Origin: Candidatus Methylomirabilota bacterium
GTDB lineage: Bacteria > Methylomirabilota > Methylomirabilia > Rokubacteriales > CSP1-6
DNA: 64,000 bases
NCBI GenBank assembly: GCA_035315345.1
Contig: DATFYA010000187.1
Location: forward strand, 3,436 to 67,435
Direction of reading: 5' to 3'
A program made the position numbers and the translations under genes. Shown piece by piece: positions 2,507 to 64,000 of the stretch. The notes beneath the pieces are model-generated. The model made no database searches. It was not told the origin of the DNA and was given only the letters and a program-made list of their open reading frames with translations. Numbering within the stretch: the first letter of the stretch is position 1; the number at the start of each line of letters is the position of its first letter.

Positions 2507-3324
2507 ACGGGGCAACCGCGCAGAGGCAGGGCGGACGCATCCTCGGGGAGGCGCGCGCGCCGATCGCGGCCGCGACGCTGCGCCGGGATTCGTGGTGGGC
2601 GCTGCCGGTGACGGTGGTGGTGGTGCTGCTGGCCTTCATCATCTACTCGACGTGGGCCGCGTTCCAGAACGCGCACTACTTCGCGGACCCGTACCTGTCG
2701 CCCTTCTATTCCCCGTGCATCACCAAGGCCTGCCTGCATCACAGCTTCGGCTCGTGGACCGTGCCGGACGTGTCGCTGCCGATCGTCGGCGTGCTGTCGC
2801 CCGCGTTCCTGATCCTGGCCGGCCCGGGCCTCTTCCGGCTGAGCTGCTACTACTACCGCAAGGCCTACTACCGCTCGTTCTGGCTGGCTCCGCCCGCGTG
2901 CGCGGTGCGGGACACCAAGGCCGGCTACACCGGGGAGACCCGCTTCCCCCTGTTCCTGCAGAACTTCCACCGCTACATCTGGTACGTCGCGGTGCTCTTC
3001 ATCGGGATGCTCACCTGGGACGCGATCCTCGCCTTCCGCTTCCCGGACGGCTTCGGCATCGGGGTCGGCACCATCGTCATGTGGATCAACGTGCTGTTCC
3101 TGGCCGGGTACACCTTCTCCTGCCACTCCTGCCGCCACGTGTGCGGCGGCCACGTGGACGTCTTCTCCAAGGCCCCCGCGCGGTACGGAGTCTGGAAGTT
3201 CTTCACCCGGCTCAACGAGCGGCACCCGATGTTCGCCTGGCTCTCGCTGTTCAGCGTGGGCCTGACGGATCTCTACATCCGGCTGGTCTCGATGGGGATC
3301 ATCCGCGACTGGAGGATCATCTGA
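2503..3324 (+). CDS. sdhC: succinate dehydrogenase/fumarate reductase cytochrome b membrane anchor (single-subunit b558-like type)
   Basis: ATG overlaps the upstream stop. About 5 hydrophobic, His-containing segments. Sits directly upstream of sdhA/sdhB. Family call rests on position and hydrophobicity. Confidence 0.7.
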   Translation: MNGATAQRQGGRILGEARAPIAAATLRRDSWWALPVTVVVVLLAFIIYSTWAAFQNAHYFADPYLSPFYSPCITKACLHHSFGSWTVPDVSLPIVGVLSPAFLILAGPGLFRLSCYYYRKAYYRSFWLAPPACAVRDTKAGYTGETRFPLFLQNFHRYIWYVAVLFIGMLTWDAILAFRFPDGFGIGVGTIVMWINVLFLAGYTFSCHSCRHVCGGHVDVFSKAPARYGVWKFFTRLNERHPMFAWLSLFSVGLTDLYIRLVSMGIIRDWRII

Positions 3325-5126
3325 TGGCGACCGTCGAATACGAGACCCACGAGCACGACGTCCTGGTCATCGGCGCGGGCGGCGCCGGGCTGCGGGCGGC
3401 CATCGAGGCGGCGGCCCAGGGCGTGTCGGTCGGGCTGGTCTGCAAGTCGCTCCTCGGCAAGGCCCACACCGTCATGGCCGAGGGCGGGATCGCCGCCGCG
3501 ATGGGCAACGTGTGGCCGGAGGACAACTGGCAGGTCCACTTCCGCGACACCATGCGCGGCGGCAAGATGCTGAACAACTGGCGCATGGCCCAGCTTCACG
3601 CCCAGGAGAGCCCGGAGCGCGTGCTGGAGCTCGAGCGCTACGGCGCGCTCTTCGACCGGACCAAGGACGGGCTCATCTCGCAGCGCGACTTCGGCGGCCA
3701 CCGCTACGCGCGGCTGGCCCACGTGGGCGACCGCACCGGGCTCGAGATGATCCGCACGCTCCAGTACCACGCGATCCACCAGGCCATCGAGGTGTACATG
3801 GAGTGCAAGATCGAGCGCCTGCTCAAGGACGGCGACCGGGTGTGCGGGGCCTTCGGCTACTGGCGCAACACCGGCAAGTTCGTCCTCTTCAAGGCCAAGG
3901 CCATCGTGCTGGCCACCGGCGGCATCGGCAAGGCGTGGAAGTACACCTCGAACTCCTGGGAGTACAGCGGCGACGGCCACTCGCTCGCCTTCTGGGCGGG
4001 CGCGGACCTCATCGACATGGAGTTCGTGCAGTTCCACCCGACCGGGATGGTGTGGCCCCCCTCGGTGCGCGGCATCCTGGTGACCGAGGGCGTGCGCGGC
4101 GACGGCGGGACGCTGAAGAACACCGCGGGCGAGCGGTTCATGTTCAACTACATCCCCGAGTTCTTCAAGGCCGAGACCGCGGACAGCCAGGAGGAGGCCG
4201 ACCGCTGGTACCAGGACAAGAAGAACAACCGGCGGACCCCGGATCTCCTGCCGCGCGACGAGGTGGCCCGCGCCATCAATTCCGAGGTGAAGGCGGGCCG
4301 CGGGACCGTGCACGGCGGGGTGTTCCTCGACATCTGCACGCGGCGCGACGCCGATTACATCCGCAAGCGCCTGCCCTCGATGTACCACCAGTTCAAGGAG
4401 CTGGCCGGCGTCGACATCACCAAGGAGCCGATGGAGGTGGGGCCCACCATGCACTACGTCATGGGCGGGGTGCGGGTGGACGCCGACTCCACCGCGGCCA
4501 CCGTGCCCGGCCTCTTCGCGGCCGGCGAGGTGGCGGGCGGGCTCCACGGCAGCAACCGCCTCGGCGGCAACTCCCTCGGCGACCTGCTCGTGTTCGGGCG
4601 CCGGGCCGGGCTGCACGCCGCGCTCTACTGCAAGAACCTGGGCGGTCGGCTCACGGTGGACGGCGGTCAGGTGGAGTCCATCGCGCGCACCCTGCTCGAG
4701 CCCTTCACCCGCTCGGGCAGCGAGAATCCGTACACCATCCAGGCCGACCTGCAGGACACCATGCACAACCTGGTCGGCATCATCCGGGTCGAGGCCGAGC
4801 TCCAACAGGCGCTCGAGAAGCTCGCGGTGCTCAAGCAGCGCGCGGCCCGGGTGCACGTCGACGGCGGCCGCGTCTACAACCCGGGCTGGCACGTGGCGCT
4901 GGACCTGGCCTCGCTCCTGACCGTGTCGGAATGCTGCGCGCTCGCCGCGCTGGAGCGCAAGGAGAGCCGGGGCGGCCACACCCGCGAGGACCACCCGTAC
5001 ACCGACGACACCTGGGGGGCGGTCAATCTGGTCTCCCGGCAGCAGGGCGACCGGATCGATCTGCGGCGCGAGCCGCTGCCCCAGATGCCTCCCGAGCTGA
5101 AGGCCCTCGTCCAGGAGAGGCAGTGA
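3324..5126 (+). CDS. sdhA: succinate dehydrogenase/fumarate reductase flavoprotein subunit
   Basis: ATG 3324 within track ORF 2592..5126 (ATGA overlap). HDVLVIGAGGAGLRAA FAD fold, FHPTG, HYVMGG, RLGGNSL motifs. Confidence 0.93.
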   Translation: MATVEYETHEHDVLVIGAGGAGLRAAIEAAAQGVSVGLVCKSLLGKAHTVMAEGGIAAAMGNVWPEDNWQVHFRDTMRGGKMLNNWRMAQLHAQESPERVLELERYGALFDRTKDGLISQRDFGGHRYARLAHVGDRTGLEMIRTLQYHAIHQAIEVYMECKIERLLKDGDRVCGAFGYWRNTGKFVLFKAKAIVLATGGIGKAWKYTSNSWEYSGDGHSLAFWAGADLIDMEFVQFHPTGMVWPPSVRGILVTEGVRGDGGTLKNTAGERFMFNYIPEFFKAETADSQEEADRWYQDKKNNRRTPDLLPRDEVARAINSEVKAGRGTVHGGVFLDICTRRDADYIRKRLPSMYHQFKELAGVDITKEPMEVGPTMHYVMGGVRVDADSTAATVPGLFAAGEVAGGLHGSNRLGGNSLGDLLVFGRRAGLHAALYCKNLGGRLTVDGGQVESIARTLLEPFTRSGSENPYTIQADLQDTMHNLVGIIRVEAELQQALEKLAVLKQRAARVHVDGGRVYNPGWHVALDLASLLTVSECCALAALERKESRGGHTREDHPYTDDTWGAVNLVSRQQGDRIDLRREPLPQMPPELKALVQERQ

Positions 5127-5884
5127 TGGCAAAGACCTTCACGATGCGGGTGTTCCGCGGCGACGCCGCCGGCGGCGACTTCAAGGAGTACACCGTCGAG
5201 GGTGGCGAGGGGATGGTGGTGCTGGACGTGGTCCACCGGATCCAGGCCACCCACGCCCCCGACCTGGCGTGCCGGTGGAACTGCAAGGCGGGCAAGTGCG
5301 GCTCGTGCAGCGCGGAGATCAACGGCAAGCCGCGGCTGATGTGCATGACCCGCATGGACATCTTCGAGGAGAACGAGGTCGTGTCGGTCGCGCCGATGCG
5401 GACGTTCCCGATCATCCGCGACCTGGTGACCGACGTCTCCTACAACTACGAGAAGGCCAAGCAGGTGCCGCCGCTGCGCCTGAAGCCCGCGGATCCGGAC
5501 GGCCGCTACCGGATGATGCAGGAGGACGTGGAGCGCGGCCAGGAATTCCACAAGTGCATCGAGTGCTTCCTGTGCCAGAACGTCTGCCACGTTATCCGCG
5601 ACCACGAAGGCCTCAAGAAGTCCTTCTCGGGCCCGCGTTTCTTCATCAAGATCGCCGGGCTCGAGATGCATCCGATGGACACCCGCGACCGGACCGACTT
5701 CGTGCGCGAGCAGGCCGGGGTCGGGTTCTGCAACATCACCAAGTGCTGCACCGAGGTCTGCCCGGAGCACATCCACATCACCGACAACGGCATCATCCCG
5801 ATGAAGGAGCGGATGGCCGACAACTTCGACCCGGTGGTGTGGGTGCTGCGGAAGATCAGGGGCTCCAAGAAAGCCGCGCCCTGA
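5126..5884 (+). CDS. sdhB: succinate dehydrogenase/fumarate reductase iron-sulfur subunit
   Basis: ATG 5126 (ATGA overlap) within track ORF 3512..5884. CRWNCKAGKCGSCSAEING, CIECFLCQNVC and CNITKCCTEVCP cluster motifs. Confidence 0.9.
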   Translation: MAKTFTMRVFRGDAAGGDFKEYTVEGGEGMVVLDVVHRIQATHAPDLACRWNCKAGKCGSCSAEINGKPRLMCMTRMDIFEENEVVSVAPMRTFPIIRDLVTDVSYNYEKAKQVPPLRLKPADPDGRYRMMQEDVERGQEFHKCIECFLCQNVCHVIRDHEGLKKSFSGPRFFIKIAGLEMHPMDTRDRTDFVREQAGVGFCNITKCCTEVCPEHIHITDNGIIPMKERMADNFDPVVWVLRKIRGSKKAAP

Positions 5885-5888
5885 CCGC

Positions 5889-7058
5889 ATGAAGATCCAC
5901 GAGTACCAGGGCAAGGCCATCCTCAAGGCCTACGGCGTCGCCGTGCCCGCCGGCGACGTGGCGGACACCCCCGCGCAGGCGCGCGCCATCGCGCAGCGGC
6001 TCAATGGCCGAGTCGTCGTCAAGGCGCAGGTGCACGCGGGCGGCCGCGGCAAGGCGGGCGGCGTGAAGCTGGCCGACGATCCGGCGGGCGCCGAGGCGGC
6101 GGCCGGGCAGATCCTCGGCATGATGCTGAAGACGCCGCAGACCCCGCCCGAGGGCATCAAGGTGCTGAAAGTCCTCGTCGAGGAGGCCTCCCCGATCGCC
6201 AGCGAGCTCTATCTCTCGATGACGCTCGACCGAGGCAAGGGCACCCACGTGGTGATGGCCTCGCGGGCCGGCGGCATGGACATCGAGGAGGTCGCGGCCA
6301 CCCATCCGGAGAAGATCCTCCGCGAGTGGACCGACCCGGCGCTGGGCCTGCAGGCCTTCCAGGCGCGCAGCCTCGCCTTCGGGCTCGGCCTCTCCGGCGA
6401 CCCCCACAAGCAGGGCGTGGCCTTGATCGCCAACCTCTTCCGCGCCTACCTCGACAAGGATTGCTCGCTGGCGGAGATCAATCCCCTCGTGGTCACCCGC
6501 GACGGCCGGGTGATGGCGCTCGACGCCAAGCTCAACTTCGACGACAACGCGCTCTACCGCCACAAGGACGTGGTGGCCATGCGCGACGTCAACGAGGAGA
6601 CGCCGCTGGACGTCGAGGCCTCGAAGTACAGCCTCAACTACATCAAGCTGGACGGCAACGTCGGCTGCATGGTGAACGGGGCGGGGCTGGCCATGGCCAC
6701 GATGGACATCATCAAGCTGGCCGGCGGTGAGCCCGCGAACTTCCTCGACGTGGGCGGCGGCGCCTCCCCCGAGCAGATCGAGAACGCCTTCCGTATCCTG
6801 TCGTCGGACCCGAGCGTGAAGGCGGTCTTCATCAACGTCTTCGGAGGCATTCTTCGAGTGGACCGGCTCGCCGAGGGGATCATCGCCGCGGTGAAGACGC
6901 TCGGCCTCAAGCTGCCGGTGGTCCTGCGCGCCGAGGGCACCAACGTCGAGCAGGGCAAGAAGATGCTCGCCGAGTCCGGCCTCGCGCTGGTCATGGCCAA
7001 CGACATGGGCGAGGGCGCGAAGAAAGTCGTCGAGCTGGCCCGGAGCTCGCGCCCGTGA
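5889..7058 (+). CDS. sucC: succinyl-CoA ligase (ADP-forming) beta subunit
   Basis: Track [21 protein letters not shown]-terminus and overall SucC pattern. Confidence 0.95.
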
Positions 7059-9717: not shown

Positions 9718-10562
9718 GGGAGGTGGAGGCCGAGCCCGCGGACGATCATCGAGAGCGCCAGGTAGACCACGACGGGCAGGAACAGCTTGCGCACGGTGGT
9801 GTTGCGCAGCCGGGCCATCACGGTGGTGCCCAGGTAGGCGCCGGCGAGCACGCCGATCGCGACCGGCGCCGCGATGAGGGTATGGATGTCCCCGCGGCTC
9901 CAGTAGATGCTGGCGCTGGCCGCCGCGGTGAGCCCGATCATGAAGTTGCTGGTCGCGGTCGAGACCTTCATGGGCAGCCGCATCAGGTAATCCATCGCGA
10001 GCACCTTGAAGGCGCCGCTGCCGATGCCCAGCATGCCGGACAGCAGTCCAGCCCCGAACATCGCGCAGAAGCCCTGCACGACCCGCTGCGCGCGATAGAC
10101 CACCTCGCGCTCGAGACGCAGGTCGTGGTACGTGCCCTCGAGGTCGAAGCGCAGGGCCAGCGGATCGTCGGGCGGGCTCTCGGGCAGCTCGTCGCGCAGC
10201 TGCTTCACCGTGGTGTAGGCGGAATAGGACAGGGCGAGGCCCAGGATCAGCTCGAGGGCCCGCGTCGGCACCACGCCGGCCAGCAGCGCGCCCACGAGCG
10301 CCCCGCTGATGGTGGCCATGACCAGGAACAGCCCGATGCGGAGATTGCTCAGGCCGGTGCGCAGGTAGGAGGCGGCGGCGCCGCTCGACGTCGCGATGAC
10401 CGAGATGATGCTGGCGCCCATCGCGTAGTGCAGGTCGACGCCGTAGAACACGGTGAGGATCGGAATCAGGAGAATGCCGCCGCCGAGCCCGAGGATGGCG
10501 CCCACCGCGCCGGCGCCGATCGACGTGAAGAGCACGGCGAGCGAGAAGACGGTCAGACTCAT
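9714..10562 (-). CDS. sulfite/anion exporter TauE/SafE family permease
   Basis: Track ORF 9714..10568. ATG 10562 preferred over TTG 10568. Multiple hydrophobic segments with repeated G-rich (LGLGGGILL, GIGSGAF) motifs. Confidence 0.85.
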   Translation of the reverse strand: MSLTVFSLAVLFTSIGAGAVGAILGLGGGILLIPILTVFYGVDLHYAMGASIISVIATSSGAAASYLRTGLSNLRIGLFLVMATISGALVGALLAGVVPTRALELILGLALSYSAYTTVKQLRDELPESPPDDPLALRFDLEGTYHDLRLEREVVYRAQRVVQGFCAMFGAGLLSGMLGIGSGAFKVLAMDYLMRLPMKVSTATSNFMIGLTAAASASIYWSRGDIHTLIAAPVAIGVLAGAYLGTTVMARLRNTTVRKLFLPVVVYLALSMIVRGLGLHLP

Positions 10563-18565: not shown

Positions 18566-18662
18566 CCCTCTCCCCGGAGGGGAGAGGGCAGGGTGAGGGG
18601 CTGGCGCCGGCGTGAGTCCGCCCACCCTCACCCCGGCCCTCTCCCGGGAAGGGAGAGGGAGG
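18566..18662. repeat. REP-like element pair in inverted orientation (hairpin CCCTCTCCCC-N3-GGGGAGAGGG plus GGGTGAGGGG box)
   Basis: Left copy at 18566-18600 and an inverted copy at 18621-18659, in the spacer between the SBP and permease genes. The same motif family recurs at 62588-62680 and 63696-63835. Confidence 0.8.
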
Positions 18663-27529: not shown

Positions 27530-29161
27530 TCAGGTCTTCGGCGTCCAGGCTTTGAAGCGCTCTCGCAGCACCTTCTTGTCGAACTTGCCCACGCTCGTCT
27601 TGGGCACCGCCTCGATGAAGACCACCTCGTCGGGCAGCCACCACTTGGCCACCCGCGGCTTGAGGTATTCGTAGATCTCGTCGGTGGTGAGCCGGCCTCG
27701 ATGCTCGGGCTTGGGCACGACGCAGGCCAGCGGCCGCTCCACCCAGCGCTCGTGCGGCACCGCGATGACCGCGGCCTCCAGGACTTTGGGGTGGCCCATG
27801 ATGGTGGTCTCCATGTCCACGCTCGAGATCCACTCGCCGCCCGACTTGATCAGGTCCTTGGTGCGGTCGGTGATCTGGATGTAGCCGTCGGGATCGAGGG
27901 TGGCCACGTCCCCGGTGCGGAACCAGCCGTCCTCGGTGAACTGGGCCGCACCCTCGGGGTTGTTGTAGTAGCCGCTCGTGATCCACGGCCCGCGCACCTG
28001 GATCTCGCCCGCGCTCTTGCCGTCCCACGGCAGGACGGTGCCGCGGTCGTCGACGATTCGCATGTCCACGCCCGCGACGGGAGCCCCCTGCTTGGCCCGC
28101 ACCGCGTAGCGCTCGTCCTCGGTGAGCGCGTCCATGTAGGAGCGCGGACGGCACACGCTGCCGAGCGGGGTCATCTCGGTCATGCCCCAGGCGTGCAGCA
28201 TGTAGGCGCCGTACTTCTTGTCGAACAGCTCGATGAGCGAGCGGGGCGCCGCCGACCCGCCGATCGGGATGCAGCGGATCGAGGAGATGTCCCACTGCGG
28301 CTCTTTGTCGAGAATCGCCTGGATGGCGATCCAGACCGTGGGCACCGCCCCCACCACCGTGACCTTCTCGTGGTGGACGATCTCGATGATGTCGCGCGGC
28401 TGCGGATTCGGCCCGCCGAAGATCTGGGTCGCCCCGTTCATGACGCCCGCGAAGGGCACGCACCACGCGTTGGCGTGGAACATCGGCACGATGTGCAGGA
28501 TCACGTCGCGCTCGCAGATGCCGAGCACGTCCACCGAGGACGAGGCGAAGCAGTGCAGGTAGATCGCGCGGTGCGTGTAGACGACCCCCTTCGGATGCCC
28601 GGTGGTGCCGGAGGTATAGCAGATGCCGGCCGCGTCGGTCTCCTCGATGCGCGGCCACGCGGTCACCGGCGGAGTGCCCGTCACGAGCTGCTCGTAGTCC
28701 AGGGCGCCCGCGGGGATCACCGCGTCCGGGGTGTCCTTCATCACGATGATGTGCTTGACGGTCGTGAGGTCGCGCCGGATGGGCTCGAGAAGGTGCCAGA
28801 GGCTGGCGTCGACGATCAGCACCTCGTCGCCCGCGTGGTTGACGATGTAGGTGATGTCCTGGGCGGAGAGGCGGATGTTGACGGTGTGGAGCACCAGGCC
28901 CATGAGCGGGGCCGCGAAGTAGACCTCCATGTGCCGGTGCGAGTTCCACGCGAACGTCCCGACCCGCGCCCCTTTCTGGAGGCCCAATCCCCGCAGCGCG
29001 CCGGCGAGGCGGCAGACACGGTCGGCGTAGTCGCCGTACGTGTAGCGCTGCAGGCCCACCCCCGGCACGCGCGTGGCCATGGTCTTCCGGTGGAAGAGCC
29101 GGCGCGTGCGTTCGAAGAACTGCGTGAGGGTGAGGGGGTAGTCCATCATCAGGCCTCTCAT
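27530..29161 (-). CDS. long/medium-chain fatty acid--CoA ligase (AMP-forming)
   Basis: ATG 29161 within track ORF 27530..29251, with GGGAGGA RBS 10 nt upstream. [13 protein letters not shown]-terminus, [28 protein letters not shown] motifs. Confidence 0.88.
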
Positions 29162-39465: not shown

Positions 39466-39696
39466 CTCTTCAGCTGCGGGGGCCCCGAAATGGCCCCCGC
39501 ACTCCCCCCGTCGGCGGACAATCGTTCTTGCGCCCATAGGCCCACTTGGCCGTCCGCACTCCTCCCGTCGGCGGACAATCGTTCTTGCGCCCATAGGCCC
39601 ACCGGGCCGTCCGCACTCCTCCCGTCGGCGGACAATCGTTCTTGCGCCCATAGGCCCACCTGGCCGTCCGCACTCCCCCCGTCGGCGGACAATCGT
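39466..39696. repeat. hairpin plus 57-bp tandem repeat array (3.6 copies) in an operon spacer
   Basis: 9-bp GC hairpin GCGGGGGCC-N7-GGCCCCCGC at 39476-39500. Repeat units lie at 39491-39546 (56 nt), 39547-39603, 39604-39660 and 39661-39696 (partial). Units 2 and 3 differ at a single nucleotide. Confidence 0.9.
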
Positions 39697-61897: not shown

Positions 61898-61940
61898 CCG
61901 CAGGCACCGTATCTGGTAGGGCTCCTTCCGAGGGCCCCAC

Positions 61941-61982
61941 TGTATTTTGTTGTTGCAATATACTAAACAAATGACGTGTAAT
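61941..61982 (+). promoter_or_regulatory. AT-rich promoter/operator island upstream of imuA (candidate SOS operator)
   Basis: By my count, only 11 G/C in 42 nt. TTGCAA (61953-58), 18-nt spacer, TGTAAT (61977-82). Dyads TTTGTT-N14-AACAAA (61946-71) and TTGTT-N11-AACAA overlap the -35 box. Confidence 0.35.
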
Positions 61983-62013
61983 CAGCCCGAGACATCTATA
62001 AAGAGAACGCGGC

Positions 62014-62706
62014 ATGGCTATCCCGATCGAGTCCTCACCTCCGCCAGGGTGGGATCGTGAAGGGATCGACGGCCTGCTCGGCCTGTTCCCGCCGGGTCGG
62101 CTCAGCGAGATCGTCGGCCCCCGATCCTCCGGCGGCAGCAGCCTGCTCCTGGCCCTCATTGCCCGGATCACGACTCGCGGGCAGGTGGCCTACGTGGACG
62201 GGATGGATGCGCTCGATCCCGCCTCCGCCGCGACGGCCGGCGTCGATCTCTCCGCGCTGCTCTGGGTGAAGTGTGCAGGCCGTCTCCGCACGGCGCTGAG
62301 CGCCGCCGATCTGCTCGCCCGTTGTCCCGGCTTCTCGCTGATCGTCCTCGACCTCGACGACCTCGGGCCCGTGCCTTTCGCCGCTCAGATCCGGCTGCAG
62401 CGGGCGGTGGAAGACCGCGACGCGGCATTGGTCGTCCATACTGCACGTCATCGCGAGGGCAGCCCCGCCTCGCTGGTCGTGACGACTCGGCGTCTGGCTC
62501 CCCGCTGGAGGGGACTGCGTCCGCTCACCCGTCTCGGTGGGCTTCGCTCCGAGGTCTCCATCGCCCGCTCCCGCCTCCACCCCTCCTCCCTCTCCCCCCT
62601 GGGGAGAGGGCAGGGTGAGGGGGCTGAGGGTGAGGGGGCTGAGGGTGAGGGGGCTGGAGGTGAGAGAGGTGAGGGGCAGACCTGGGCCCTCGACTGGACC
62701 CTATGA
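62014..62706 (+). CDS. imuA: translesion-synthesis-associated RecA/SulA-like protein ImuA
   Basis: Track ORF. GRLSEIVGPRSSGGSSLLLALIA degenerate P-loop region, followed directly by imuB (ATGA overlap). The C-terminal tail GRGQGEGAEGEGAEGEGAGGERGEG is repeat-derived. Confidence 0.78.
   Translation: MAIPIESSPPPGWDREGIDGLLGLFPPGRLSEIVGPRSSGGSSLLLALIARITTRGQVAYVDGMDALDPASAATAGVDLSALLWVKCAGRLRTALSAADLLARCPGFSLIVLDLDDLGPVPFAAQIRLQRAVEDRDAALVVHTARHREGSPASLVVTTRRLAPRWRGLRPLTRLGGLRSEVSIARSRLHPSSLSPLGRGQGEGAEGEGAEGEGAGGERGEGQTWALDWTL
62588..62680. repeat. REP-like hairpin plus 15-bp tandem repeats embedded in the imuA 3' coding region
   Basis: CCCTCTCCCC-CCT-GGGGAGAGGG at 62588-62610. This is followed by GGGTGAGGGGGCTGA repeated at 62613, 62628 and 62643, then degenerate copies. 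Confidence 0.8.
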
Positions 62707-64000
62707 CCCGCATCGCCTGTCTGCTCGCCGCGACCGATGCCGAGCCCGATGGGTCCGTTCACCGCATGCTGCTCCAGGTCGCGCTGTCCCATTCGCCCCG
62801 CGTGGAAGACGGCGGCATCGGGCGTGTGTATCTCGACGCGTCGGGATTGCATGGCCTGTTCGGTGACGAGCCCCGGCTCGCCGCACGTCTCCGCGACATG
62901 ACCGCGGCCGCCGGGGTGACGGCACGTGTGGGCATCGCGGGGAGCCGGCTCGCGGCCCTGGCCGCCGCACGCCTGGGGCCCGGCGCCGCCGTCGTCGATC
63001 CGGATGGCGACGCGGCCTACCTGGCCGTCGCGCCGCTCTCCCTGCTCGAGCTGTCGAATGAGCTGTCGGCCCGGCTATCCCGCTGGGGTCTCCGCACGCT
63101 CGGGGAGCTGGCCGCCCTGCCGACCGCGGGGCTGTTCGAGCGGCTGGGAGGAGAAGGGGTGCGGCTGCAGCGGTTGGTGCGCGGCGACGACCCGCGCCCG
63201 CTGGTCTCCTGGAAGCCGGCGCTGCTCTTCGAGGAATCGGTCCAGTGCGAGTGGGGCATGGAGACGCTCCCGCCGGCGGTCGAGCGCCTGGGCGAGCTGG
63301 CCGCGCGAGTGTGCGCGCGCCTCGGCGAGCGCGGGCTCGCGGCCGACGGCTTCGAATGGGCCTGCCGCCTCGACGGCGGCCACCTCCACGAGGGCGCGCT
63401 CGCTCCCGCGGTGCCCATGACCGATGGCGCCGCCGTCGCGGCATTGCTCCGCCTCGCGCTCGAGGCGCGTCCGCCCCGCGGTATCGTCCGGGGCCTCACG
63501 CTTCGTGCCCGTCCCGCGCGGATCACGGCGATGCAGGAATCGCTCACCGATCGCTCCCGCCCCAGTCCGCGCCTCCTCGCGGCCACCCTGAATCGTTTGG
63601 TGGGCCTGGTGGGCGCGGACAGCATAGGCGCTCCGGCGCTGCTCGACAGCCATCGCCCCGACGCCGTGGGCCTGGGCGCCTATGCTCCTCCTCCTTTCTC
63701 TCTCTCTTCCCTCCGGGACGCGGGCGCGGCTTCTCCCTCTCCCCTCCGGGCCGCCGACGCGCCTTCTCGCTCTCCCCTCCGGGACGCGGGCGCGCCTCCT
63801 CCCTCTCCCCTCCGGGGAGAGGGTAGGGTGAGGGGTATCGGCGCCCTCGCCCTGCGCCGTCTCCGTCCGCCGGCTCCGGCCGCGGTCACGCTCACCTCGG
63901 GCCGTCCCGTGGCCTTGCGCTCGAGCCGGCTCAGCGGACGCATCGTGGCCGGTGCCGGCCCGTGGCGCTCCTCGGGCGAGTGGTGGAGCAAGCGGCCGTG
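62703..64000 (+). CDS. imuB: Y-family polymerase-like protein ImuB (3' end outside window)
   Basis: Not in the ORF track because there is no stop in the window. My frame-0 translation from ATG 62703 reads MTRIACLLA...RVYLDASGLHGLFG...LSRWGLRTLGELAALP...GPWRSSGEWWS, the typical ImuB pattern. Confidence 0.85.
   Translation, partial: MTRIACLLAATDAEPDGSVHRMLLQVALSHSPRVEDGGIGRVYLDASGLHGLFGDEPRLAARLRDMTAAAGVTARVGIAGSRLAALAAARLGPGAAVVDPDGDAAYLAVAPLSLLELSNELSARLSRWGLRTLGELAALPTAGLFERLGGEGVRLQRLVRGDDPRPLVSWKPALLFEESVQCEWGMETLPPAVERLGELAARVCARLGERGLAADGFEWACRLDGGHLHEGALAPAVPMTDGAAVAALLRLALEARPPRGIVRGLTLRARPARITAMQESLTDRSRPSPRLLAATLNRLVGLVGADSIGAPALLDSHRPDAVGLGAYAPPPFSLSSLRDAGAASPSPLRAADAPSRSPLRDAGAPPPSPLRGEGRVRGIGALALRRLRPPAPAAVTLTSGRPVALRSSRLSGRIVAGAGPWRSSGEWWSKRP
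63696..63835. repeat. 33-bp tandem repeats (about 3.5 copies) ending in a REP-like hairpin, embedded in-frame in imuB
   Basis: Units at 63696-63730, 63731-63763 and 63764-63796. The terminal unit contains CCCTCTCCCC-TCC-GGGGAGAGGG-TAGGGTGAGGGG (63801-63835). Confidence 0.8.

Follow-up and report, generated by a model that had tools for sequence, protein, structure and literature searches.

A REP-like palindrome probably embedded in frame in the ImuA' linker of a Methylomirabilota mutasome operon, with one arm expanded as a coding minisatellite

We analysed a 64,000-nucleotide (nt) stretch of contig DATFYA010000187.1 from a Candidatus Methylomirabilota bacterium, hereafter the window, near the end of which an imuA'-type gene contains a hairpin followed by 15-bp tandem repeats. 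We consider it likely that this feature is a copy of a widespread repetitive extragenic palindromic (REP)-like palindrome that lies in frame in the linker of ImuA', and that one of its arms has expanded there as a minisatellite. The gene belongs to an imuA'-imuB-dnaE2 mutasome cassette. Beyond the original prediction, which was made from the letters of the window alone, the analysis identified a sister copy of the element in imuB, an operon-wide enrichment of the element and its occurrence in very different organisms.

The core hairpin (62588-62610, forward strand) consists of two 10-bp arms, CCCTCTCCCC (62588-62597) and GGGGAGAGGG (62601-62610), around the loop CCT (62598-62600), and is read as (S)LSPLGRG. 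A CA spacer separates it from a G-rich arm (G-arm), GGGTGAGGGG, at 62613-62622, with which the 15-bp expansion begins (62613-62676, forward strand; three good units and two degenerate part-units). Tandem Repeats Finder (TRF) places 4.3 copies of a 15-bp unit at 62612-62675, with 85% matches and a score of 93. The codons of the array run GGT GAG GGG GCT GAG twice, then GGT GAG GGG GCT GGA, GGT GAG AGA and GGT GAG GGG, and are read as GEG-AE-GEG-AE-GEG-AG-GER-GEG. Both the coordinates and the TRF result thus confirm the 10-bp hairpin and in-frame 15-bp repeats described earlier. Immediately upstream, a C-rich stretch, CCTCCACCCCTCCT (62574-62587, forward strand), is a low-confidence candidate for a degenerate 5' C-arm of a 47-nt palindrome; it was compared with the full form CCCCTCACCC-NN-CCCTCTCCCC of low-GC contigs and varies among orthologues.

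Chance can be excluded as the source of these repeats, because the copy numbers of both the decamers and the longer composite far exceed expectation. The window holds seven copies of GGGGAGAGGG where 0.34 are expected and six of GGGTGAGGGG where 0.25 are expected. The 35-nt composite CCCTCTCCCC-N3-GGGGAGAGGG-N2-GGGTGAGGGG occurs in three exact copies, at 18566, 62588 and 63801, and was found in none of 100 shuffles. The first of these lies between genes, and its exact 35-nt match to the imuA' insert bears out the proposal that the two belong to one family. This intergenic copy, comprising hairpin and G-arm (18566-18600, forward strand), begins 7 nt past a stop codon and is followed by an inverted variant copy (18625-18659, reverse strand) made of the C-arm CCCTCACCCC and the hairpin CCCTCTCCC-GGGAA-GGGAGAGGG. 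Together, the two form a composite hairpin (-76.1 kcal/mol, z = -4.3) resembling a REPIN, a mobile unit of paired REPs. A further match to GGGTGAGGGG, at 29128, is a lone occurrence within other sequence and was not counted as an element.

When folded in isolation, the imuA' hairpin is more stable than its shuffles, both as RNA (-20.6 kcal/mol, z = -2.6) and as DNA (-11.5 kcal/mol, z = -3.0). The surrounding 131-nt region is no more stable than shuffled sequence (z = +1.7 as RNA, +0.7 as DNA), because any C-rich half can pair with any G-rich half. Only the local hairpin is specifically ordered, and a single large specific structure upstream of imuB, considered as a candidate, was dropped. Nor does the hairpin stand just before the imuB start, as had been suggested: it ends 93 nt upstream, and this distance shifts with the copy number of the repeat. 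Canonical G-quadruplex (G4) motifs, with at least four tracts of three or more G and loops of 1 to 7 nt, are present at 62601-62623 and 62628-62653. With G4 energies included, RNAfold returned -77.9 rather than -64.7 kcal/mol, a predicted G4-containing fold 13 kcal/mol more stable. The first two G-tracts also form the right arm of the hairpin, and the predicted G4 and the hairpin would compete. A scan against Rfam gave only sub-threshold matches to generic hairpins of the miRNA type and no known RNA family.

Comparison with orthologues places the repeat inside the protein rather than at its end. In 120 homologues (71-100% identity), the motif LSPxGRGQGEG is followed by zero to six xxGEG pentapeptides and then by a conserved xW(T/A)LDWTL; one fragment, P0214, has at least eight units. 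In the window, the translation ends in ...SRLHPSSLSPLGRGQGEGAEGEGAEGEGAGGERGEGQTWALDWTL*, and the native C-terminus, QTWALDWTL (62677-62703, forward strand), is conserved beyond the insert, with invariant or near-invariant columns at W224, D227, W228, T229 and L230. Because homology resumes at this C-terminus, the repeat is an internal insert in a short variable linker that joins the RecA-like core to a Trp-rich end, and its description as a C-terminal tail does not stand. The linker residues beside the element vary freely in length and sequence.

The array behaves as a 15-bp coding minisatellite, with a unit length divisible by three and a copy number that differs between relatives. Close relatives of the ImuA' protein are 235, 230, 225, 220, 217 or 212 amino acids (aa) long, in steps of 5 aa, and two proteins that are 95-98% identical, P0002 and P0003, have 2 to 4 units. 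With orthologues ranging from zero to at least eight units, the earlier view that coding sequence took up a structured repeat, which then grew in multiples of three, is upheld. The variable dipeptide of the unit is the same within a protein and specific to the lineage (AE, LK, LQ, PK, IN, FQ, RQ, AG or GQ), a pattern of uniformity within proteins and difference between lineages that points to recent, independent expansions. The acidic Gly/Glu character ascribed to the repeat therefore holds in this lineage only; elsewhere LK, LQ, PK, IN, FQ, RQ or AG accompanies GEG.

We compared more distant orthologues across 47 species-level genome loci. Those with 40-60% identity have no insert: a ...VLRSR motif is followed by about 10 residues and then by WxIEWRL or WWxA, and the gene still overlaps imuB by ATGA or GTGA. 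No repeat-free orthologue with the same Gly/Glu-type tail was found among them. Since these deep orthologues have both the start/stop overlap and the Trp-rich end in the absence of the insert, both features are ancestral and the element was gained within one subclade. In the window, the imuA' TGA (62704-62706) overlaps the imuB ATG (62703-62705), and the resulting ATGA (62703-62706, forward strand), or its GTGA equivalent, is present in 40 of 40 complete junctions, including those of insert-free lineages. The overlap that the original prediction noted is thus real and was not made by the element.

Within the carrier clade, four loci (L175, L176, L177 and L024) are nested among carriers and have lost the insert by in-frame deletions that left arm scars. 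In L177, the left arm ACC CTC TCC CCC is joined straight to TGG ACC, and in L176 the codons CTC CCT CTC remain; the nearest relatives of L024, with cores 94-96% identical, all carry the element. We therefore rejected these "empty sites" as the ancestral state and regard them as secondary deletions. The insert is dispensable, yet every surviving state keeps the frame, as it should if both the C-terminal motif and the coupled start of imuB are required.

A second exact copy of the 35-nt composite lies at 63801-63835 (forward strand), in the linker of ImuB that joins the polymerase core (ending in ...LLDSHRPDAxxLxxY) to the ImuB-C domain (LALRRLRPP...), where it is read in the other frame as PSPLRGEGRVRG. 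A 33-bp array of 3.6 copies (63699-63816, forward strand; TRF score 180) derives from the left arm and loop of this copy, and its in-frame translation consists of S/PSPLR(D/A)A(G/D)A units. Between the window and the near-identical strain L001, this array has 11 differences in 192 nt, compared with 11 in the 6,693 nt upstream, and looks as if its units had swapped positions. L018 and L023 read the opposite strand of the imuB copy, which gives HSGPLPERE. The element carries a TGA in one frame, and its two open frames are exactly the two used. Outside their inserts, imuA' and imuB contain 57 Arg codons, none of which is AGA, and 54 Gly codons, of which 5 are GGT; both AGA and GGT are nonetheless retained in the element across species. 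Because these rare codons are kept and two frames and both strands are used, the element is of foreign, non-coding origin, and it is the DNA that is shared, not the peptide. The imuA' copy (5332-5354) and the imuB copy (6425-6447) of L010 share a rare variant of the left arm, CTCTCTCCCC, a hint of gene conversion or exchange between them.

The full element is a 47-nt palindrome, CCCCTCACCC-NN-CCCTCTCCCC-NNN-GGGGAGAGGG-NN-GGGTGAGGGG. An exact-pattern scan of metagenome contigs returned more than 120 stretches, a minimum figure, and only 1 of the 80 matches listed falls in an imu locus. Among the matches listed, contigs bearing the 35-47-nt sequence span 39-75% G+C; low-GC contigs have the complete 47-nt palindrome in AT-rich spacers, and in high-GC contigs the element usually begins a few bases past a stop codon. 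By a crude test, 85 of 104 hairpins lie outside open reading frames (ORFs), and the neighbouring genes are ordinary and unrelated (193 Pfam families among 143 ORFs). This is the distribution of a REP-type element, that is, a short palindrome in many dispersed and mainly extragenic copies. Expansions of the tail, often with a 15-bp period, are also found outside imu. Related multi-copy palindromes are present on plasmids of Azospirillum, Rhizobium, Klebsiella, Enterobacter and Leptolinea, and the Klebsiella araA-araD spacer holds a REPIN-like dimer. A full-text literature search with the bare motif GGGAGAGGG gave unrelated matches only. Two further copies were observed in other settings: on L129, a contig of 45% G+C, a copy is read in frame within a ThiL-like ORF (3382-4332; ...KWVLPLTPTLSPRGRGKGEGIIGIGDD...), and on L059 an IS110-like transposase ORF (2575-3645) directly adjoins one.

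Despite this wide dispersal, the element is strikingly concentrated in the mutasome operon. At 41 Methylomirabilota loci, counting hairpins with at most one substitution per arm, we found 37 in 83 kb of imuA' plus imuB (+100 nt) versus 2 in 542 kb of flanking sequence, and both flank hairpins belong to the single intergenic pair of the window. Restricting the count to carrier genomes gives 37 in 43 kb versus 2 in 305 kb, an approximately 130-fold difference, and a looser definition of the hairpin still gives a 23-fold difference. Because copies in the operon are passed on by descent, they cannot be counted as independent events; the number of separate arrivals is at least four or five. The sites reached are the imuA' linker; the imuB linker in forward orientation, including lineages without an imuA' copy (L030 and L032); the imuB linker in reverse orientation (L018, L023 and L039); and the imuB-dnaE2 junction (L013 and L018). 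The junction copies lie in reverse orientation just past the imuB stop (L013, about 10340-10398; L018, 7557-7578), and that of L013 has three 15-bp tail units (GGGTGAGGGGTCTAG).

Conservation of the element was next compared with that of the gene around it. In 16 alignable orthologous imuA' copies, identity is 94-96% in the hairpin arms, 92% in the G-arm and 58% in the loop; in copies at the imuB site, it is 92-98% in the arms and 57% in the loop. Within the same gene, four-fold degenerate sites have a mean of 70%, with 23% of columns invariant. Arms that are kept around a loop that is free to vary point either to selection on the sequence or structure of the nucleic acid or to gene conversion that homogenises the copies, rather than to peptide-level selection. 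With stems that hardly vary, covariation offers no compensatory evidence for or against pairing.

Taken together, these observations are best accommodated by in-frame capture of the palindrome. The element would have entered the imuA' linker in frame in the ancestor of one Methylomirabilota subclade, after which the only survivors would be in-frame states, namely, the intact element, expansions or contractions, and deletions. Such a restriction would follow because two of the three frames of the element are open and because the conserved C-terminal motif and the ATGA-coupled imuB lie downstream; the motif and translational coupling would be what enforces upkeep of the frame. The G-rich 3' arm plus 5 nt would act as a 15-bp minisatellite in which the number of units rises and falls, the most likely mechanism being replication slippage or unequal exchange promoted by the hairpin and G-rich structure. 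The outcome would be a linker of zero to at least eight pentapeptides whose sequence is dictated by the DNA motif rather than by selection on the protein, and a sister copy in the other frame would have taken the interdomain linker of ImuB and given rise to the 33-bp array. As protein, the insert is probably near neutral linker material, because it is dispensable. As nucleic acid, the element probably either keeps a REP-type role here, as an mRNA or DNA hairpin, or owes its uniformity to gene conversion. In a yeast two-hybrid study cited in PMC11791113, loss of the C-terminal 40 residues of mycobacterial ImuA' abolished ImuB binding; a variable linker could therefore alter how the conserved end of ImuA' is presented.

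Several points weigh against this account. Neutral trapping alone leaves at least four or five arrivals in one operon with near-empty flanks unexplained. No mobilising transposase was enriched among the ORFs beside 80 copies (25 Pfam families listed), in a search that covered the neighbourhoods of copies, so that a single-copy gene is easily missed. The arm identities in imuA' are subject to ascertainment bias, the 16 alignable copies being drawn from about 26 sites of which 3 have arm indels, 3 are decayed and 4 are deleted. Slippage is read from the pattern of units rather than observed. Finally, an AlphaFold2 model of ImuA' built with 30 close homologues had a mean predicted local distance difference test score of 43, which made the model of the linker unusable.

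One alternative is that the concentration in imu reflects where the element lands rather than selection, with copying into DNA that is SOS-induced, heavily transcribed or single-stranded. As a variant, local hopping or gene conversion from a first copy would seed the operon. In either case, copies would persist because imprecise loss breaks the frame. We regard this as possible, if rather unlikely. Unrelated REP families likewise favour replication and repair genes, including dnaE2, a bias judged non-fortuitous (PMC3733652), and the independent arrivals at the junction and, in both orientations, at the imuB linker fit such a preference, as does the left-arm variant that the two L010 copies share. 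However, variants common to both copies were found in one genome only, and neither a transposase nor a target motif was identified among the copies examined; no common motif was evident at the left flanks of copies, those of the three window copies included. A landing preference would also leave the conservation of the arms after insertion unexplained.

The element could instead have been retained in the imu operon as a cis-acting nucleic acid signal, which we think unlikely. REP-type hairpins might protect or partition the polycistronic mRNA and thereby set the ImuA':ImuB:DnaE2 ratio, or a switch between hairpin and G4 might couple expression to replication stress; the hairpins would be confined to coding linkers because overlapping genes leave no intergenic space. 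Much of the evidence above is compatible with such a signal: the 23- to 130-fold density, the occupation of three operon sites including the imuB-dnaE2 junction, the contrast between arms (92-98%) and both loop (57%) and four-fold sites (70%), the typical position of the element elsewhere just past stop codons, and the G4 motifs with their more stable predicted fold. In addition, three of the six imperfect imuA' stems are fully paired when G.U is allowed on the sense strand. Nevertheless, the element has been deleted or has decayed in several lineages, and deep lineages function without it. Ribosomes melt hairpins in translated regions, the 131-nt region is no more structured than its shuffles, and the imuB copy, which occurs in both orientations, lies about 300-400 nt ahead of the imuB stop rather than at a 3' end.

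A bolder version of the same idea, which we consider quite improbable, is that mutasome operons specifically recruit or retain REP-like palindromes as cis-acting nucleic acid elements rather than simply tolerating them. The palindromes might form a hairpin or G4 that sets subunit stoichiometry on an mRNA lacking intergenic space, or one that ties operon expression or copy-number change to replication stress. If this were true, cis recruitment would explain the long-noted bias of REPs for DNA repair genes, and the instability of the element would make the ImuA'/ImuB linker length an evolvable "tuning knob" of the error-prone polymerase complex.

That the Gly/Glu repeat is itself a selected protein feature, such as an acidic, flexible tether or a DNA-mimic tail that tunes the ImuA'-ImuB interaction, with the hairpin incidental, is very unlikely. 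The dependence of ImuB binding on the C-terminal 40 residues of mycobacterial ImuA' is in keeping with it, and linker length could tune the presentation of the C-terminal motif. This explanation is nonetheless largely refuted: the character of the variable dipeptide changes with the lineage (acidic, basic, hydrophobic or polar), anything from zero to at least eight units and even whole-insert deletions are tolerated, ImuB translates this DNA in a different frame, some species read it from the opposite strand, and rare codons are kept.

Finally, we give practically no credence to a sequencing or assembly frameshift that hides a real imuA' stop upstream of the repeat, although database proteins P0009, P0013, P0020, P0110 and P0115 and locus L027 (10001-10636) of a metagenome-assembled genome (MAG) carry frameshifts within the imuA' array and two contigs, L004 and L005, break off in the imuB array, because six contigs are identical here, the protein is recorded on 20 contigs, and the in-frame C-terminus is kept in more than 100 orthologues at every array length. 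The frameshift that the original prediction had named as a way to be wrong is thereby excluded. Both arrays are trouble spots for sequencing and assembly. The region 62560-62710 is 100% identical in the six contigs, which come from different samples and were chosen for their identical protein, and the repeat region is not an assembly accident.

In-frame capture of the palindrome, with expansion of one arm, has precedents. The case is an in-frame palindromic insert combined with a coding minisatellite, and similar cases are already known. Here, an interspersed palindrome lies in a gene with the frame kept and homology on both sides, and insert-free orthologues exist. Rickettsia palindromic elements (RPEs) are selfish elements of about 105-146 bp, restricted to Rickettsia, that are tolerated in surface or linker regions and kept in orthologues; tandem expansion of an arm is not known among them. 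As cited in PMC3184786, RPEs (Ogata et al. 2000) are palindromic repeats read in frame in coding genes. The present repeat shares with them its in-frame position in a protein gene and differs in being 35-47 nt long, in occurring in very different bacteria and in having an expanded arm. The mycobacterial interspersed repetitive unit-variable number tandem repeats (MIRU-VNTRs) of Mycobacterium offer a second comparison, being minisatellites of 40-100 bp inside operons with a copy number that varies between strains. They preserve reading frames and overlapping stop and start codons, thus keeping translational coupling, and form small intergenic ORFs. The present repeat differs in originating from a palindromic element and in lying within a gene, with a conserved C-terminus encoded downstream of it.

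Like the REPs, bacterial interspersed mosaic elements and REPINs of proteobacteria, the element is a short GC-rich hairpin found just downstream of stop codons, and its inverted pairs (18566-18659 in the window, the araA-araD spacer of Klebsiella) form larger hairpins. Its copy density here is low, at about 2 per 305 kb of flank, unlike that of those families. REPINs are defined by mobilisation through REP-associated tyrosine transposases (RAYTs), and no RAYT gene was found near 80 copies, where a single-copy gene could be missed. The closest published parallel is that of Di Nocera et al. (2013; PMC3733652), who found intragenic REPs tagged with GTAG or CGTC to be concentrated in replication and repair genes and argued that this was not fortuitous; the tag marks REP superfamilies linked to RAYTs. 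These REPs, of families other than the present one, were reported there in dnaE2 of Opitutus terrae and Sphingomonas wittichii, among other genes, and imuA and imuB are absent from the table of REP-bearing genes (PMC3733652). Like those REPs, the present element is a short interspersed palindrome, mostly intergenic near the 3' ends of ORFs, with a minority of copies in frame in flexible parts of proteins and a bias toward repair genes, which for the published REPs includes dnaE2, the error-prone polymerase gene of this mutasome. It differs in that the GTAG or CGTC tag is absent from its 35- and 47-nt consensus and flanks, in that the genes affected are imuA' and imuB, in that its occupancy is orthologous across many species, and in that one arm has become an in-frame minisatellite.

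The locus thus provides a clean, quantifiable example, in a soil bacterium, of non-coding selfish or structural DNA turned into protein sequence, in which an identical 35 nt is read in two frames of two adjacent genes and one arm became a linker of variable length. It also bears on the question posed in 2013 of why intragenic REP-type palindromes favour repair and error-prone polymerase genes, since here the bias can be measured (23- to 130-fold) and involves several independent arrivals. What sets the case above the routine is how strong and how repeatable its link to the mutasome operon is, together with natural variation on the scale of a phylum. The arrays of zero to at least eight units, the in-frame deletions and the use of both orientations amount to natural "experiments". 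In practice, the arrays could act as strain markers in Methylomirabilota metagenomes.

The assignment of the genes themselves rests on both domain content and context. The ORF that carries the insert (62014-62706, forward strand; 230 aa) has a RecA fold (Pfam RecA, E = 8.6e-12, 45.5 bits, above the cut-off) and a precomputed match to Pfam PF27531, MT3502_N, which corresponds to Rv3395c/ImuA'. Its scores against the NCBIfam ImuA' and ImuA models, 31.5 and 30.4 bits, lie below the respective cut-offs of 65 and 150. Downstream, an ImuB-like gene (62703-64000, forward strand; Pfam IMS, NCBIfam Pol IV-like) is cut by the end of the window; it encodes an inactive-looking Y-family protein with a C-terminal ImuB-C-like domain, and its full-length counterpart in L001 has 464 aa. 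Longer contigs with an identical imuA' ORF continue into a DnaE2-type polymerase (1186 aa, with PHP and DNA_pol3_alpha matches in L001). The ORF is identified as ImuA-type, in agreement with the earlier reading, because it combines the RecA fold and the MT3502_N match with ImuB-like and DnaE2-like genes downstream.

A number of minor features of the locus were also observed. The absence of lysine from the Walker-A-like loop of ImuA' (GPRSSGGSS; residues 35-43, window 62110-62140) suggests a RecA fold without ATPase activity. Another loop of variable length, rich in Gly and Ser, follows ARITT in ImuA' orthologues (alignment A1, columns 58-69). Upstream of imuA', an AT-rich block, ctgtattttgttgttgcaatatactaaacaaatgacgtgtaat (about 61935-61990), is kept in 22 of 22 orthologous upstream regions and holds an inverted repeat, GTATyTT-N8-AArATAC, together with -35/-10-like hexamers; judged by these motifs, it is probably a promoter with an operator, possibly of the LexA type. 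The DnaE2-type polymerase gene of L001 (8092-11652, 1186 aa) has a precomputed Pfam Intein_splicing match. Elsewhere in the window, the strongest tandem repeat (39497-39696) consists of 3.5 copies of a 57-bp unit with 96% matches and a TRF score of 372; it lacks a convincing open frame and is not of the same repeat family as the element studied here. Lastly, relatives of ImuA' were found on eight contigs (L008, L010, L012, L016, L017, L023, L042 and L050) that are titled Nitrosotalea (an archaeon), Acidoferrum, Limnocylindria, Verrucomicrobiia, Deferrimicrobiaceae, Dormiibacterota or Binatia. Identity over the best tblastn segment is 44-78%, and 69-78% for six of the eight; these contigs are probably mis-binned Methylomirabilota contigs in MAG collections.

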